Source: an uncultured virus (IMG/VR IMGVR_UViG_3300001041_000018)
Taxonomy: Duplodnaviria > Heunggongvirae > Uroviricota > Caudoviricetes
IMG/VR virus record: IMGVR_UViG_3300001041_000018
Reading direction: 5' to 3' (one strand)
DNA: 64,000 nucleotides
The notes under the pieces are model-generated. The model searched no databases. It was given only the letters and a program-made list of their open reading frames with translations, and was not told where the DNA came from. The position numbers and the translations under genes are program-made. Below, piece by piece: positions 2,360 through 43,756 of this stretch. Every line of letters starts with the position of its first letter. Position 1 is the stretch's first letter.

Positions 2360-2632
2360 ATGAACATCCCATCAATCAAAACGATCAAAACCCGGCTGAC
2401 CTGGCTCAATAAGGTAGGTGATCCGGATGTGCTGGCGAAGCAGATCAGGAAGGAACTGGAGTGGTTCCGCGACAACTCAGGAGGCCGGGAAGCACACGTT
2501 AGGGCACTCATGAATAATTTGAACCTCCTCTTGAACACACATGGTGTCGAGTACATCAGGCACAAGGATGACGACCTGCAGAGGATTTGGGAGGAAGAAA
2601 CGAACGAGGATGCCCTACAAAGGCCAAACTAA
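2360..2632 (+). CDS. Hypothetical protein (HGVEYI motif, possibly truncated)
   Basis: AAGGAG RBS. Confidence 0.65.
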   Translation: MNIPSIKTIKTRLTWLNKVGDPDVLAKQIRKELEWFRDNSGGREAHVRALMNNLNLLLNTHGVEYIRHKDDDLQRIWEEETNEDALQRPN

Positions 2633-2721
2633 AATTCACGTATACATTCCCATTCACTTGTGCTATAAGTGCCATTTAAAGTGGTGTAGCGCTCGAAATT
2701 CAGGTAAAAGGAGAGGACGAG

Positions 2722-2913
2722 ATGACCGACCATTATGCTTACGTAGAAATACTCGGAGATCCCGGTAAGTACAACCAGTTCCCATTCAAAGGGGAGTTTC
2801 ACATTGCGAGCATCTCGCAAATCAAGTCCTCCATGATAGGGCTGGCTGAGGCTGACTGGCTCGAAAACTATCAAGTCGTGATCGACGGCGAGGTTTACGC
2901 ACGAAAGGAGTAA
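2722..2913 (+). CDS. Hypothetical protein
   Basis: RBS and tight packing. Confidence 0.65.
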   Translation: MTDHYAYVEILGDPGKYNQFPFKGEFHIASISQIKSSMIGLAEADWLENYQVVIDGEVYARKE

Positions 2914-7657: not shown

Positions 7658-8335
7658 ATGGAACGGTGCATTTTCTACAGCCGTGTCTCAACCAAAGGAC
7701 AGTCAGAGCGACACGGACTCGACGCTCAGCGAGCCATAGTTGCTGATTACGCAACCCGTCACAATCTCGAAGTCATCAAGGAGTACACCGAGGTAGAATC
7801 TGGCTCCAACAAGGAAAGACCGGTTCTCAAGGAGGCCCTGAACTACTGCGAGTTGACCGGCTGCAGGCTGATCACAGCAAGACTTGACAGACTTTCGAGG
7901 AGCCTCTCGTTCCTCACCGTGATCCTGGATTCCGGAGTCGAGATCATCATCTGCGACTTCCCCAACACAAGCAGGTTCGTACTGAACGTGCTCGGCTGCG
8001 TAGCTGAGTACGAGTTGGAGAGGATCAGGGAGCGGACCAAGAACGGCCTGAAGGCGGCTAAGGCCAAGGGAGTTCAACTGGGCAAGGCGTGCCACTTGAA
8101 CAGAGATGAAGCCAAATTTGGAGATGGCAGAATCCAAGGCTCTCTCAAGAACCGGACCAAAGCGGATCTTCGCGCCGAGAAATTGAAACCTGAAATAATC
8201 AAATTCCAGAACCAAGGAATCACCTCTTTAACCGCCTTGGCTCAGCAATTGACTGAAGCAGGAATCCAGACTCCCAGGAAGAAAAAGGTCTGGACTTCAC
8301 AGGGCGTCAAGAATCTGCTGGTGAGGATTGGGTAG
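7658..8335 (+). CDS. Serine recombinase (resolvase/invertase family)
   Basis: YSRVST catalytic motif, ESGS...RP, RLDRLSR, ERERIRERT-like helix E, C-terminal DNA-binding region. Confidence 0.95.
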   Translation: MERCIFYSRVSTKGQSERHGLDAQRAIVADYATRHNLEVIKEYTEVESGSNKERPVLKEALNYCELTGCRLITARLDRLSRSLSFLTVILDSGVEIIICDFPNTSRFVLNVLGCVAEYELERIRERTKNGLKAAKAKGVQLGKACHLNRDEAKFGDGRIQGSLKNRTKADLRAEKLKPEIIKFQNQGITSLTALAQQLTEAGIQTPRKKKVWTSQGVKNLLVRIG

Positions 8336-11942: not shown

Positions 11943-13955
11943 ATGAGCAAGCTCAACAGGTTGTTCTCGACGGTTCCACTGGAGGAAATTGAGCAGTCTG
12001 CTCAGCAGCAGATTTTTGATGTACTGGAATTGGATTGCCTGAAGAAGCTGGCGATCATGCCGGATGTCCATGCAGGTTACGACCTGCCGATTGGAGGAGT
12101 CGCTCTTTTAGAGGGGATGATCTCTCCTTCTTTCGTCGGATACGATATCGGGTGCCTTGATAAGGACACTGAGTTTTTGTCTCCTAGTGGTTGGGTTAAA
12201 ATTTCAGAATACGGGGGTGGCGAGGTACTTCAGTACAACCCGACTACCGATGAAGCATCGTTTGTAGTACCCCAGCGTTATGTGGTGCAACCATCAGAGG
12301 GCTTCTACCATCTGTGGCACAAGGATGGCATGGATCAAATGCTGTCTTCGGGTCACAAGGTGCTGTTCTGGCATGGATACAAGTCGCGGGGGTATAAGCC
12401 CAAAGTGTATGCAACTAAAGAACTAGTGGAAAAGCACAGGTCTCTAGGTAAAGGACTACAAGGCGGAATAAAAACCACGTTCAAATTAAGTAATCCTGAT
12501 TTGGATATGACTGATGCTATCCTCAGGGTAATTGTCATGGTGAGTGCGGATGGGCACATAAGAAAGCAAGGCACCACTGAACTACACTTCAGAAAAGAGA
12601 GGAAAATAATTAGAGCCCAGGAACTGCTTAACCAGGCGGGAATAAATTACGAGTTAACCGTAGGTGTGGATGGCAGCACCTACATATACTTCAGGGACTA
12701 TCGAGTCACTAAGGACCTGTCTATTTTCTGGGCAAGTAGCGAAGCGCAACTCAGAATTATTGCAGAAGAATGTTTGCATTGGGATGGTACAGTGGGTGAG
12801 CACGAAGCTTTTTCCGCTACTTGCAAGCAAAATGCGGATTTAATTCAGTATGCCTTTACGGTGGCGGGGGCCAGAACTGGCATACACTGCCACTCTTACG
12901 AGGGGAAAGATTGGAACTCAACTTGGTGGGTTTACAAAACCAAAAACGAGTATGTGGGACTAACCAAAAACGAGGCGATTAACTTCGTGTCGTCTCAAGA
13001 CGGTAAAGAATATTGCTTCACGGTTCCTTCGGGATATTTCGTAGCTAGGCGCAACAACAAGATTTTTATCACTGGAAACTGTGGAATGTGCTCGTTAGAC
13101 ACAGGCATCAAGGCTGCGAGCGTGACTACCCTCCGAGGCATCTACAACGACATCCTGAAGGTGATTCCTACGGGGTTCTCCTCACATACAAAGGACCAAG
13201 GCTACGATTGGGTGCTGTTTTCAGACGTGATGGATGTTAACACGCACCAGCGAGTCCAGGCTAAAGTTGGCACCCAACTCGGAACGCTAGGTGGCGGAAA
13301 TCATTTCATAGAGCTTGGCGAGAACCAGAAGGGCAACCTCTGCGTCACGATTCACTCGGGGTCCAGGAACGTAGGCCATACAATCGGCGGTTGGTACATG
13401 AAGAAGGGCCGGTTGTTCCCTCTGGAGTCTGAGCTTGGACAGGCTTATCTTCAGGACATGAATTTCGCTCTGGAGTGGGCACTGGAGAATCGGCTGCGGA
13501 TGATGACCCAAGTGCTACAATGCCTAGGGCTGCACCCTAACCAGTTAGCGAACCGCGTCATCAACGAGAACCACAATCACGCCGTCGTAACTCCTGAGGG
13601 CGTCCTGCACCGCAAAGGAGCGACTCCTGCGGACCTGGGGCAGCTTGGTGTGATCCCAGCCAACATGCGAGATGGCGTGTACATCACGGAAGGCTTGGGC
13701 GAGTCCTATTATCTCTCCTCGGCATCTCACGGCTGCGGTAGGGTCATGGGAAGGAACCAAGCGAAGAAGACGCTGGATTATCAGGAGTTCAAGGACGGGA
13801 TGCAAGGCATCATCTGCTCCACCAACCGCTCAATCCTGGATGAGGCGCCCGCCGCCTACAAGGACATCAATTACGTGCTGGCAAAGCAGGAGGGAGTCAC
13901 CGTGAGTGTGATCGACCACATCAGGCCGCTGCTGAATATTAAAGCGGCGGAATAA
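11943..13955 (+). CDS. rtcB: RtcB RNA 3'-phosphate/5'-OH ligase containing an intein
   Basis: MPDVHAG, VGYDIG|CGM split by an insertion, GTLGGGNHFIE, HSGSR, HNH, HRKGAT, SHGCGR, DEAPAAYK. Confidence 0.95.
   Translation: MSKLNRLFSTVPLEEIEQSAQQQIFDVLELDCLKKLAIMPDVHAGYDLPIGGVALLEGMISPSFVGYDIGCLDKDTEFLSPSGWVKISEYGGGEVLQYNPTTDEASFVVPQRYVVQPSEGFYHLWHKDGMDQMLSSGHKVLFWHGYKSRGYKPKVYATKELVEKHRSLGKGLQGGIKTTFKLSNPDLDMTDAILRVIVMVSADGHIRKQGTTELHFRKERKIIRAQELLNQAGINYELTVGVDGSTYIYFRDYRVTKDLSIFWASSEAQLRIIAEECLHWDGTVGEHEAFSATCKQNADLIQYAFTVAGARTGIHCHSYEGKDWNSTWWVYKTKNEYVGLTKNEAINFVSSQDGKEYCFTVPSGYFVARRNNKIFITGNCGMCSLDTGIKAASVTTLRGIYNDILKVIPTGFSSHTKDQGYDWVLFSDVMDVNTHQRVQAKVGTQLGTLGGGNHFIELGENQKGNLCVTIHSGSRNVGHTIGGWYMKKGRLFPLESELGQAYLQDMNFALEWALENRLRMMTQVLQCLGLHPNQLANRVINENHNHAVVTPEGVLHRKGATPADLGQLGVIPANMRDGVYITEGLGESYYLSSASHGCGRVMGRNQAKKTLDYQEFKDGMQGIICSTNRSILDEAPAAYKDINYVLAKQEGVTVSVIDHIRPLLNIKAAE
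12153..13079 (+). mobile_element. Intein (309 aa) with LAGLIDADG-type endonuclease domain
   Basis: Starts CLDKDTEF, ends YCFTVPSGYFVARRNNKIFITGN before the +1 Cys; internal VMVSADG and LHWDG motifs; visibly AT-richer codons. Confidence 0.9.
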
Positions 13956-40875: not shown

Positions 40876-40892
40876 TGGGAGAGGTAAAAATT

Positions 40893-41057
40893 TTGAAACA
40901 AGAAACCAAAGATTTACTCGTAGCGGGTTGGGTAGTGGTTACGCAGGTTGTGGCAATCATGTCTGGGATCGCAGGACTTGTGGCGCTGATCCAAGGGGAT
41001 TACTCTCAAGCAACTTTCAACATGCTCATGATGCACATACTGAGCACCAGGAACTAA
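40893..41057 (+). CDS. Small membrane protein (54 aa)
   Basis: GAGG + TTG; translated by hand. Confidence 0.5.
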   Translation: MKQETKDLLVAGWVVVTQVVAIMSGIAGLVALIQGDYSQATFNMLMMHILSTRN

Positions 41058-41085
41058 AACCAAAAATTAAAAAGGAGACCAAAAA

Positions 41086-41469
41086 ATGAACAAACTCGTA
41101 ATTTTCGCGCTGATCGTGGTAGCTGCATTTTCCGCAGGCTGCAAAAAGTCCGCTGATGAAAAAGTCGCAGCGACCGTAGCCAACGTCCATGCACTGACCG
41201 CAGAGGAGCGCACGCTGGCTGAAATCAACGCCAAGAGGTACTTCGAGAAGGAATGGCCTGTTCAGCGCAAGGAAGCGGATGGCAACATCGTGCTGACGAA
41301 AGAGCGTGGCGCCCTCGTCAACGTGAGGCCCTCCGACAGCAACTTCAATGGCCTCGTCACCTCCGTAGGCATGGTCCCGCAGCAGAATGGTGGCTTCAGG
41401 GAAGTCAAGGTTTTCTGTGGATACAAGCCGGAACTCGTGGGCTGCTCCGATGAGGACACCGTGAAATGA
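41086..41469 (+). CDS. Lipoprotein
   Basis: Signal peptide with SAGC lipobox. Confidence 0.8.
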   Translation: MNKLVIFALIVVAAFSAGCKKSADEKVAATVANVHALTAEERTLAEINAKRYFEKEWPVQRKEADGNIVLTKERGALVNVRPSDSNFNGLVTSVGMVPQQNGGFREVKVFCGYKPELVGCSDEDTVK

Positions 41470-41591
41470 GTGTGCTGGTGGATGTAAGCACATTCGTGAT
41501 CGGGTGTTTGATTATTGGCTCAGGTGGCTTCGCTTGCGGAGTAGTTGTAGCTTGGAGATGGATTAAAAAATAACCAGGAAAGGAGAATAAA

Positions 41592-41801
41592 TTGTTCCTC
41601 AAAAGTAAAACCATCGACGAAATTATGGGTACCTTCCAGAAGGCTGTCAAGGAACTCGAACTTCATTCCTCGAAGCACGACGCTATCGCAGATGGTATCG
41701 AAACCAAGATTTCAGATCTGATGAATGATCGCGAGAAGCACCTTGGTGAAAGTCTGGAAGCAACCAGGCTCGCTGAGAAAATGAAGCAGGCCTTTCTGTA
41801 G
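41592..41801 (+). CDS. Small coiled-coil protein
   Basis: AAGGAG + TTG. Confidence 0.65.
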   Translation: MFLKSKTIDEIMGTFQKAVKELELHSSKHDAIADGIETKISDLMNDREKHLGESLEATRLAEKMKQAFL

Positions 41802-42105
41802 GAACGAGATCACCCCGCCGATCCTCTCCCTCGGAACATGAGGTGCAAGCAGCGCGGACAAGTAGCACGTCATTGAGGGCATGGCCTAATTTGGCTAAGG
41901 CTGGTAGCTGGTACAACCGGATTTGGAGCGCAAGCCTCTGAGGTTCTCAGCTGCTGAGAGCTTGAAGCTCAAACCTGTGCTCTACGGTAGTTGTACCCAA
42001 GCCTAACATGAGTGACCTGAGCGTGTGAAAGGGGAGGAGCCTGTACTCTACGGTAGTTATTCAGGCAGCGCTGGCAGACCGCGTGGAAGTCTGCCGCCTA
42101 ATTTA
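41802..42105 (+). ncRNA. Candidate structured non-coding RNA
   Basis: Gene-free 300 nt with at least five nested long-range helices and several hairpins; strand assumed from flanking genes. Confidence 0.5.
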
Positions 42106-42117
42106 AGGAGATCCAAA

Positions 42118-42354
42118 ATGAACGAAGAATTCAAAATTTATCATCTCGCAATCGACCCGGAGCGGCTCAAAGAGGCTCGGGCCTACGTCCTCGACCGGCT
42201 ATGTGGCCTTCGCAATTTCGACGAGATCGACACCGATGCTCTCGAAGAGATTGATTCGATCCTGGGCGACATTGCCTGCGAAGCCAATGAGGAGTACGGG
42301 ATGGACACCTTGTTCGGCTGTGACAAGGATCTGCCGGAAGACGAGGTGGCTTAA
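42118..42354 (+). CDS. Hypothetical acidic protein
   Basis: AAGGAG RBS before ATG 42118. Confidence 0.7.
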   Translation: MNEEFKIYHLAIDPERLKEARAYVLDRLCGLRNFDEIDTDALEEIDSILGDIACEANEEYGMDTLFGCDKDLPEDEVA

Positions 42355-42765
42355 ATGAGATTCATCGCAGAAGCAGCATCAACCGCAGTAGATCTCAAAG
42401 GAGACAGGTTTGCGCCTGAAGCTCTCTACCAGATGGCTGAGGCCGTACAAGGGAAGGAGATTCCGATTCTTGATGGTTTCAACCAGCACGTCAAGGTTGG
42501 CTTCGTGGACTCAGCGAAGGTCTTGGACAACAAGCTGATCATCGAAGGCGAGCTTCTTGTTGGGCTTTTGGAGAAGGCGGAAGGATTTGTGGTTCCTGGT
42601 TATCAGGTTATGCGTGGAGGCCTCGTAGATGAAGTCTGGGTCGAAACCGACGTGAGGCTGAACTGCTTCGGGCTTACCAGCCTTCCTTGTGATCCCACGT
42701 TGAAGCCGTTGCAGGAAATGGAGTTCAAAAAATGTGCGATGGGAGTGGGGAGGTCGGGTGGCTAG
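42355..42765 (+). CDS. Degenerate HK97-type prohead protease-like protein
   Basis: ASTAVDLKGDRFAPEAL...IPIL...VG...GY...LTSLPCDP follows the family layout. Confidence 0.55.
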   Translation: MRFIAEAASTAVDLKGDRFAPEALYQMAEAVQGKEIPILDGFNQHVKVGFVDSAKVLDNKLIIEGELLVGLLEKAEGFVVPGYQVMRGGLVDEVWVETDVRLNCFGLTSLPCDPTLKPLQEMEFKKCAMGVGRSGG

Positions 42766-43756
42766 AAAATTTCTTTGCAGCGGGGATTGGCACATTTGGC
42801 TTCGCAAAGAGGCTCCCTTCGCTTGGCAGATCGACCGCTACATGCAACTCTTCGAGTTCCTGATCGAGGCCTGCCTGCACAACCACGCGGAGTTGATCAT
42901 AGCAGGGGATCTTTGGGAGAAATGTGAGCCCGAGCTTGAGGAGCAAGAGCTTGCTTTTATCTTCTTCAGGATGTGTCGTGAGGCCGGTATCGAAGTCTAC
43001 TTGATCTCTGGAAATCACGAACAGATCGGGCCAGGCAAGGACACTTTCCAGTACCTGGACATGGGCAAGGACAAGACGATCAAGCTGAATTACCAAGCGA
43101 AGCCTTGGGTTCATCACCTGCCTGACGAAAATTGCACGCTGCACTTTGTAAATCATTGTTCCTTGGGCACCTATTCTGGACCCACAGTGACTGGCACCAA
43201 GCTGAACATTTTGATCTCTCACTTCCGATGCAACTACAACCAGTTCGTCAAGGAGGAAATTGATGTCGATCATTTGCTGGAGCCTTTCGATTTGGCTATT
43301 TGTTCAGATATTCACGCCCCCTACTCAGTAGGCAAGCTCGTCTACACGAACCACCCGGTCAACAAGGAGTTTCAAACCTCGGTCGATACCGGAGTTGTCC
43401 TCCTGACCCTTGACAAGGGCACCGCGAAGTACGAGCGAATAGCCACAAATTTGCCCTCACTAATTCAGATCCGAATTCGAGCGGATGAGGAATTTCCTGC
43501 TTTAAACGAAACCGACTTCTACCGGATCGAGGTCACCGGCACCGTGCCTGAGTTGAAGACCATTTCAGCGCCTCAATCCAACGTCAAGTTGGTGAAGGTG
43601 CCTGAGGCTTTGCAGGTTTTGGTTCAGGATTCAGGAGAGCAAGAAGAAATCATCAACGCCTCGCTCGACGAGGAACTGGCTTCCTATCTGAAGGAACTTG
43701 GGTACGACGAAAATAAAATCGACCGGATGATGATGGTCTACAAGGAGGCAGCTTGA
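42758..43756 (+). CDS. sbcD: SbcD/Mre11-like nuclease
   Basis: GDWH, AGDL, GNHE, SH, DIH. Confidence 0.88.
   Translation: MARKFLCSGDWHIWLRKEAPFAWQIDRYMQLFEFLIEACLHNHAELIIAGDLWEKCEPELEEQELAFIFFRMCREAGIEVYLISGNHEQIGPGKDTFQYLDMGKDKTIKLNYQAKPWVHHLPDENCTLHFVNHCSLGTYSGPTVTGTKLNILISHFRCNYNQFVKEEIDVDHLLEPFDLAICSDIHAPYSVGKLVYTNHPVNKEFQTSVDTGVVLLTLDKGTAKYERIATNLPSLIQIRIRADEEFPALNETDFYRIEVTGTVPELKTISAPQSNVKLVKVPEALQVLVQDSGEQEEIINASLDEELASYLKELGYDENKIDRMMMVYKEAA

Follow-up and report, generated by a model that had tools for sequence, protein, structure and literature searches.

A modular structured RNA candidate with conserved cores and a swappable arm at the tRNA slot of an uncultivated phage clade

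The window, by which we mean the whole analyzed stretch of 64,000 nucleotides, comes from an uncultured phage whose IMG/VR record runs to 102,669 bases and is estimated to be 91% complete. A gap at 41802-42117 lies within a long plus-strand block of replication and repair genes encoding a family A DNA polymerase, helicases, a DNA ligase, an SbcD-like nuclease, and an anaerobic ribonucleotide reductase. The block also holds genes for RtcB (with a 323-aa insertion) and for an RNA-ligase-like protein, both located 18 to 28 kb from the gap. The gap is flanked by a 69-aa gene ending at 41801 and by a 78-aa gene starting with the ATG at 42118, and the genes after it encode the 78-aa protein, a 136-aa protein, and the SbcD-like nuclease, in that order. 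Only short or unconserved frames are found inside the gap, and no promoter or terminator was predicted there. Cumulative GC skew, inspected for a replication origin, does not turn near 42 kb. A blastn search (word 11) with positions 41000-43000 against 50,697 phage records gave no match, and two neighboring proteins had no similarity to proteins of known phages. Public sequencing runs that contain the stretch are labeled as groundwater or sediment metagenomes, and none of the ten listed is an RNA run.

The genes around the gap vary between relatives. The 69-aa neighbor is not fixed, and a 35-aa or 67-aa gene is found 5' of the element in other phages of the clade. Further upstream, window positions 40879-41591 encode two products, a protein of 127 aa and a membrane-like peptide of 35 aa, and one relative (L004:1782-2017) has a 67-aa membrane-like ORF in their place. 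By this comparison, the neighborhood as a whole is a mosaic. The same relative carries, between its 136-aa and SbcD-like genes, a 179-aa endonuclease with HNH_3 and AP2 domains (L004:3469-4008, plus strand) that is absent from the window. Elsewhere in the window, a serine recombinase with a Resolvase N-terminal domain is encoded at 7658-8335 on the plus strand (E 1.6e-28), in a phage that is otherwise lytic-looking in its replication module. An in-frame stretch of about 323 aa (residues 51-373), without a match in Pfam, splits the RtcB gene (11943-13955, plus strand), and the two split parts match positions 5-50 and 49-425 of the RtcB model. This interruption could be an intein or another insertion.

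Relatives were sought by exact-word scans (18- to 22-mers) and by protein-guided scans of viral, metagenome, and prokaryote-genome contigs. The viral collection yielded three contigs: one identical to the window over the region, and two that are alike and stand for one relative, with an SbcD protein at 77% identity. A scan of metagenome contigs with a 19-mer gave further versions, and after removal of duplicates there were six distinct versions of the gap, namely those of the window, L004, L092, L093, L096, and L099. A seventh candidate from the metagenome scan, L095, had only 20 nt in common with the others and was treated as a chance match. Among 185,579 prokaryote genomes, one of two core words found no match and the other found one; this single match lacked the rest of the element, its surroundings read by eye as coding, and it was also put down to chance. 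An SbcD alignment scan returned 80 loci, three of which belong to the clade of the window (100% and 76% identity) and the others of which are 26-38% identical. An nhmmer search with the 3' core found no match in the 77 distant loci. The element is known from one narrow clade only.

Table 1. Features of the gap and its flanking genes, in window coordinates.
Feature	Position	Strand	Remarks
69-aa gene	41592..41801	+	phrog_2380, function not assigned in family; upstream neighbor of gap
Leader, "type A"	41802..41855	+	ACCCCG at 41812-41817, invariant in 6/6 versions
5' core, 24 nt	41856..41879	+	nearly invariant
Swappable arm, 131 nt	41880..42010	+	predicted helices; replaced in four versions by unrelated arms of 43-78 nt
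Arm helices (predicted)	41882-86/41893-97; 41898-902/42000-04; 41910-19/41985-97; 41924-32/41976-84; 41933-35/41967-69; 41941-50/41954-63	+	
Arm copy of 19-nt repeat	41974..41992	+	forms 3' strand of arm helices
3' core, 84 nt	42011..42094	+	nearly invariant; 84-85 nt across versions
Purine tract GGGGAGGAG	42031..42039	+	invariant; predicted pairing with leader pyrimidines in most versions
Hairpin H1 (CCTG...CAGG)	42040..42065	+	18-nt loop; pairing probability 0.4-0.97 in 5/6 versions
Perfect 8-nt palindrome CAGCGCTG	42066..42073	+	between H1 and H2; invariant in 6/6 versions
Terminal hairpin H2 (GGCAGAC, 9-nt loop, GTCTGCC)	42073..42095	+	pairing probability 0.6-0.99 in 5/6 versions
Tail	42096..42117	+	CTAATTTAAG at 42098-42107; ribosome-binding site AAGGAG at 42105-42110
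78-aa acidic protein gene	42118..42354	+	no family match; downstream of gap

Alignment of the six versions divides the element into a leader, a 5' core, an arm, and a 3' core (Table 1). From stop codon to core end it measures 207-299 nt. The leader exists in two forms. Type A, the form of the window, has a local hairpin (CCCTC 41828-32 / GAGG 41840-43) with a loop that varies among type A versions, and two relatives have a type B leader that is unrelated to it. The cores are nearly the same everywhere. In the 10 pairs formed by five versions, we counted 6 differences over 240 compared sites in the 5' core and 20 over 850 in the 3' core; L093 was omitted from this comparison because the start of its gene differs. 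Core divergence is thus 2.4-2.5%, about four times lower per site than the 9.9% (233 of 2,352 sites) of the adjacent 78-aa gene, a yardstick of local divergence that is itself under protein-level constraint. Part of the core invariance could be owed to recent recombination and not to function. The core is single copy in the window genome and in the records of two relatives.

Within the 3' core, hairpins H1 and H2 are predicted to fold, and H1 contains the core copy of a 19-nt repeat (42040-42058). Variation in the two hairpins across versions is confined to an outer G-C/G-U pair and one loop base; the outermost pair of H2 is G-C in the window and G-U in four relatives. No U-run follows H2 in the window. 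Because the cores are nearly invariant, their fold is beyond the reach of covariation. Hand-drawn helices that would join the two cores (GCACG/CGTGT and GTC/GAC) had ensemble probabilities of at most 0.17, and we do not claim them. The purine tract GGGGAGGAG is the same in all versions, and the leader sequence predicted to pair with it differs from version to version. The invariant stretches that are predicted to be unpaired, i.e., the purine tract, the H1 loop, and the palindrome CAGCGCTG, suggest sequence-specific recognition by a conserved partner. An antisense target in the phage's own genome was also sought: no complement of the 3' core exceeds 12 nt, a length equaled or surpassed by 59 of 200 shuffled queries. 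Extra 13-mer matches were not above chance once the two repeat copies were set aside.

The arm between the cores is variable in length and origin. It is 131 nt long in the window and 129 nt in L004, where it is homologous to that of the window. The other four versions have unrelated arms of 78, 60, 63, and 43 nt in its place, and between most versions no similarity of the arms is detectable. Arm replacement was also seen in contigs of independent public runs, in which position 41879 is joined to 42022 through 75 other letters; contigs from four DNA runs showed the known variants and no new ones. The window arm folds with -50.3 kcal/mol (z -2.67), and only 2 of 200 shuffles did as well; the L004 arm has a z of -2.08. 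For the arms of the other four versions stability was not significant (z -0.10 to -1.85).

The two homologous arms differ by 13 substitutions and two 1-nt indels. When the fold is predicted from the window alone, eight of the 13 substitutions are at paired positions of that fold and no pair is broken, a result matched by 8 of 20,000 random placements with the same numbers of transitions and transversions. In the hairpin 41941-50/41954-63, three pairs are changed on both sides; such both-side changes were absent from slid controls and appeared in 31 of 500 runs of the shuffle control, which is weak with two sequences only. By this pattern of substitution, selection acts on pairing in the arm (41880-42010) as it occurs in the window and L004. 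The A>G change at 41916 and the C>T change at 41980 turn A-U and G-C pairs into G-U pairs on the plus strand and into mismatches on the minus strand. We assigned the element to the plus strand because these two changes fit that strand only. The tRNAs of the relatives and all neighboring genes are also on the plus strand.

At its base, the arm can be closed by 3 to 5 pairs in all six versions with differing letters (CATG/CATG, CATGG/CCATG, GCCT/AGGC, CAC/GTG, and CAT/GTG). The clearest letter swap is GCCT/AGGC in L096; the ensemble probability of this closing stem is at most 0.21. The arm also contains the other copy of the 19-nt repeat. In L004, the 19 nt of this copy differ by two substitutions and have lost one nucleotide, and the helix is retained, so the repeat as such is not under selection. 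The repeat probably marks an origin of the arm by partial duplication of the core.

These results bear on the initial annotation of the gap, which had proposed a non-coding RNA folded into one rod or multibranch structure by nested complementary blocks. Every block and hairpin that it listed is present: TCCTCTCC 41822-29 with GGGGAGGA 42031-38, GTCATT 41869-74 with AGTGAC 42011-16, CATG 41880-83 with CATG 42007-10, AGGCT 41898-902 with AGCCT 42000-04, GGTACAAC 41910-17 with GTTGTACC 41990-97, and the hairpins CTCAG/CTGAG, GAGCT/AGCTC, GCCTG/CAGGC, and GGCAGAC/GTCTGCC. The 19-nt element that it described as a pair does occur exactly twice, at 41974 and 42040 (0.02 copies expected; 0 of 100 shuffles with at least two matches), and the non-coding status is borne out by 1-nt indels and by arm lengths that do not differ in threes. 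The single large fold is not. The whole 304 nt has a minimum free energy (MFE) of -103.4 kcal/mol, compared to a shuffle mean of -104.8 ± 5.6 (z +0.26), and 57 of 100 shuffles folded as well; on the minus strand, z is -0.26. MFE folds of the full element do not agree between versions. Structure is upheld for the inner 131 nt (41880-42010), where plus-strand helices are under selection. There the helices GGTACAAC/GTTGTACC, CTCAG/CTGAG, and AGGCT/AGCCT hold up, and relatives do not preserve the outer helices that were to join the far 5' blocks to the far 3' blocks. Pairing of TCCTCTCC with GGGGAGGA is possible only with a type A leader; L004 retains this helix by means of three G-U pairs, and type B leaders have only 4 or 5 other pairs in its place. 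The helix GTCATT/AGTGAC is perfect in the window only, and the other five versions read AGCGAC, which gives an A·C mismatch.

Of the more specific identities suggested for the RNA, a tRNA mimic, a 6S-like RNA, and a ribozyme found no backing in model searches; as for a substrate of the phage RNA ligases, the RtcB and RNA-ligase-like genes are present but 18 to 28 kb distant. A tRNA 5' strand and D arm had been seen in 41875-41901, yet ARAGORN gave no match there even at 75% thresholds, and there was no Rfam tRNA match at E ≤ 10. Neither a 6S RNA nor a ribozyme family of Rfam 15 matched at gathering score or at E ≤ 10. No known class reached its gathering score in the whole 64 kb, and between 41700 and 42200 the only Rfam 15 hits at E ≤ 10 were P26 (18.1 bits) and Atu_Ti4 (14.8 bits), both far under the cutoffs. 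When the window and relatives were searched for known self-cleaving ribozymes and riboswitches in Rfam 15, only true tRNAs and sub-threshold noise came back, and no riboswitch, T-box, or leader family matched. ARAGORN found no tRNA or tmRNA in the window and no tRNA in the whole 102,669-base genome.

The element sits at what is a tRNA slot in relatives of this phage. Four of the six versions have tRNA genes directly after the element on the same strand: Thr(TGT) in L004, Gln(TTG) in L092 and L096, and Thr together with Ser(TGA) in L099. The core-to-tRNA distance ranges from 13 to 234 nt, and the filler is unrelated. An 82.5-kb relative (73% complete) has exactly one tRNA, a tRNA-Thr, and it lies at this slot. 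The window and L093 have none there. The tail of the window element contains CTAATTTAAG, which forms the last 10 nt of the tRNA-Thr leader in L004 and L099 and which in the window is joined straight to the ribosome-binding site; TTAAG is found at both edges of the missing tRNA piece. In our reading, a deletion has secondarily removed the tRNA cassette from the window phage, which would have kept the RNA element. The element is not merely a tRNA leader, because it is retained in two of six versions that have no tRNA, including the window phage. RNase P cuts the precursor as a tRNA matures. Since tRNAs intervene in most versions and their maturation cuts the precursor, an action in cis on the next ORF is hardly possible.

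Other variation was seen at the same slot. In L004, a 234-nt add-on free of ORFs (2514-2747, plus strand) reaches from the 3' core to tRNA-Thr and has no Rfam match; its last 40 nt or so, a hairpin and CTAATTTAAG, are common to L099 and seem to be part of the tRNA-Thr cassette. In L092, which is on the minus strand of its contig, an extra ORF of about 80 aa found in this relative only lies between tRNA-Gln and the 78-aa gene, and from its position it is more cassette-type variation at the tRNA slot. The 78-nt arm of L099 has, at 1097-1148 on the plus strand, a D-arm-like hairpin and a canonical T-arm-like hairpin with no anticodon arm, and in this predicted form it looks like an imitation of the tRNA "elbow" or a tRNA remnant. 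Its scores are sub-threshold, at 14.7 bits (E 1.1; gathering score 29) for the tRNA model and 15.4 bits (E 0.72) for mascRNA. A T-loop-like GTTCRANNC motif is found in two of the six arms, that of the window not being one of them. ARAGORN detected no tRNA in any of the six elements at 95, 85, or 75% thresholds, and Rfam returned only noise for the L093 arm.

Several readings of the gap compete at this point. The element could be a cis-acting RNA, i.e., a leader or processing platform for the tRNA cassette and for the downstream 78-aa, 136-aa, and SbcD-like genes. It is placed directly 5' of tRNA genes in four of six versions, its slot holds the sole tRNA of the 82.5-kb relative, it lies within a plus-strand operon where neither a promoter nor a terminator is predicted for the element itself, and in the window H2 lies 10 nt upstream of the ribosome-binding site. 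However, the element is retained in a phage with zero tRNAs, the 13 to 234 nt between core and tRNA are unrelated filler, and there is no match to a riboswitch, T-box, or leader family. Where a tRNA is present, its excision would also part the element from the ribosome-binding site of the next ORF. We consider cis action unlikely, if still worth keeping in mind. The substitutions in the arm weigh on a different proposal, that the gap works at the level of DNA. Under this proposal, the cores would be recombination or homing-type junctions for cassette swaps, or else a protein-binding site, and any RNA fold would be a by-product. The selection for pairing seen in the arm is at odds with this proposal, as are the two G-U-type changes that fit a plus-strand transcript only. 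All mosaic breakpoints do fall at core edges, the cores contain the palindromes CAGCGCTG and CTAC-G-GTAG and are invariant without covariation, and one relative has an HNH/AP2 endonuclease gene 0.9 kb downstream. Yet there is one copy per genome and not a dispersed repeat, no recombinase is adjacent (the only resolvase-type gene is about 34 kb off), and GC skew makes no origin-like turn at the gap. A DNA-level role is, in our judgment, distinctly improbable.

The gap could also be a decayed tRNA array, made up of pseudo-tRNAs and spacers that have no present function. Against this, core conservation exceeds that of the coding neighbor about fourfold and the arm contains compensatory change, both of which would be surprising for junk. 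The slot is the tRNA locus of the clade, the L099 arm has weak partial D-arm and T-arm matches, two of six arms have the T-loop-like motif, and the window has a 10-nt remnant of the tRNA-Thr leader, all of which speak for such decay. With no ARAGORN call in any of the six elements at any of the three thresholds and no tRNA match to the window arm at E ≤ 10, we hold this origin to be very unlikely as an account of the gap. A small or decayed protein gene is more unlikely still, to the point that we give it almost no weight. A frame opened by the GTG at 42025 of the window does run into the 78-aa gene, and a 74-aa frame of L004 crosses the 3' core. Against these stand three 1-nt indels between the window and L004 (41918, 41984, and 42021), the last of which shifts the ATG at 42008 into a frame other than that of the conserved stretch. 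The arms share no homology, their length differences are not multiples of three, and variation of the synonymous type, which the flanking gene shows, is missing from the core. In L096 other letters flank the arm, so that it lacks both the plus-strand ATG and the antisense-frame ATG, and minus-strand frames overlap the real 69-aa gene.

On balance, we believe that the gap probably encodes a plus-strand structured non-coding RNA of an uncatalogued family, built of a handle and a swappable arm, that would be cut out and stand alone. Its conservation, its modularity, the selection on arm pairing, and its strand are read directly from the compared versions. For its expression, processing, partner, and function, we infer the following course. 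The handle would consist of the 24-nt 5' core and the 84-nt 3' core with its purine tract, H1, palindrome, and H2, and the arm would be inserted between them. The RNA would be transcribed together with the surrounding plus-strand operon and then excised. In relatives, RNase P cleavage at the following tRNA would create the 3' end of the RNA, which H2 would protect, and the excised RNA would act as a separate stable species. A conserved partner from the phage or host may read the near-invariant, partly unpaired core in a sequence-specific manner. The arm would be a stabilizing or specificity module that is exchanged between phages by recombination.

A bolder version of the structured-RNA reading, to which we give little credence, would make the element a "handle-and-arm" decoy RNA of a phage counter-defense island. 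In this version, the handle would dock on a conserved RNA-handling factor of the host or phage, e.g., a tRNA-processing or RNA-repair enzyme, and the RtcB and RNA-ligase-like genes of the phage can be cited as context. The arm would be exchanged by recombination in step with the tRNA cassettes (Thr, Gln, and Ser), and the RNA could thereby mimic or titrate the tRNA-directed nuclease deployed by whichever host the phage has at the time. If this were true, a single arms race would account for both the elbow-like arm of L099 and the mosaic breakpoints at the edges of the cores.

Whichever role the RNA may have, the element is small, has a sharply bounded invariant core, and occurs in natural arm-swap variants and in variants with and without tRNAs, which makes it a compact system for study. 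The constant part could serve to fish for a partner, and nature supplies ready-made mutants in the form of the variants. The immediate reach is limited to an orphan RNA candidate of one narrow clade of uncultivated groundwater phages. That tRNA loci of phages can carry stable RNAs is long-established (T4 rnaC/rnaD, GOLLD, and ROOL), and to our knowledge none of these has an assigned role.

We compared the element with these RNAs and with Y RNAs. T4 rnaC and rnaD are located in the tRNA gene region of T4 and are matured together with the tRNAs. They are phage non-coding RNAs of about 120-140 nt that are transcribed consecutively and whose function is described as not known in the pertinent part of the source (PMC12685909). 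The likeness is one of niche, in that an RNA without an assigned role is found where a phage has its tRNA genes. In sequence the two are not similar (blastn against the 50,697 phage records), and our element, unlike rnaC/rnaD, is about 210-300 nt long, lies 5' of the tRNAs, combines a constant core with a swappable arm, and survives in a tRNA-less phage. Models of GOLLD and ROOL are included in Rfam 15. According to the section of the source that deals with them, GOLLD and ROOL are often near tRNAs and in prophages, their function is not known, ROOL averages 581 nt, and GOLLD is longer (PMC5737381). Measured by those lengths, the window-type element is 2 to 4 times shorter; unlike them, it has no Rfam match and is restricted to one narrow clade. 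Both families are marked by lengths of roughly 580 nt or more and by many multistem junctions. Only the genomic niche is alike, beside tRNAs in a phage. Membership in T4 rnaC/rnaD, GOLLD, or ROOL was rejected because the sequence and model tests were negative.

YrlA-type Y RNAs are modular, one module imitates the D and T arms of tRNA, and some are phage encoded; by the definition in the source, YrlA shares its strand with a Ro60 (TROVE) gene no more than about 4 kb away, carries GNCGAAN0-1G close to its 5' end, and has T and D stem-loops that are conserved (PMC4201824). The weakly D-arm- and T-arm-like arm of L099 is the point of likeness to YrlA so described. Ro60/TROVE (PF05731) had no match in the 102,669-base record, which is 91% complete, and control genomes were positive. 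Five of the six elements, that of the window among them, lack the GNCGAAN0-1G motif, and the one match, in L004, falls in its strain-specific add-on. By the same description, the tRNA-like part of YrlA is the conserved part, whereas in the window-type element it is in the variable arm of one or two of six versions. With no TROVE gene, no such motif in the window element, and no Rfam match, we set aside a Y RNA identity as that source defines it. Taken together, the element is best read as an unclassified modular phage RNA candidate that stands apart from tRNA, 6S RNA, Y RNA, GOLLD, and ROOL.
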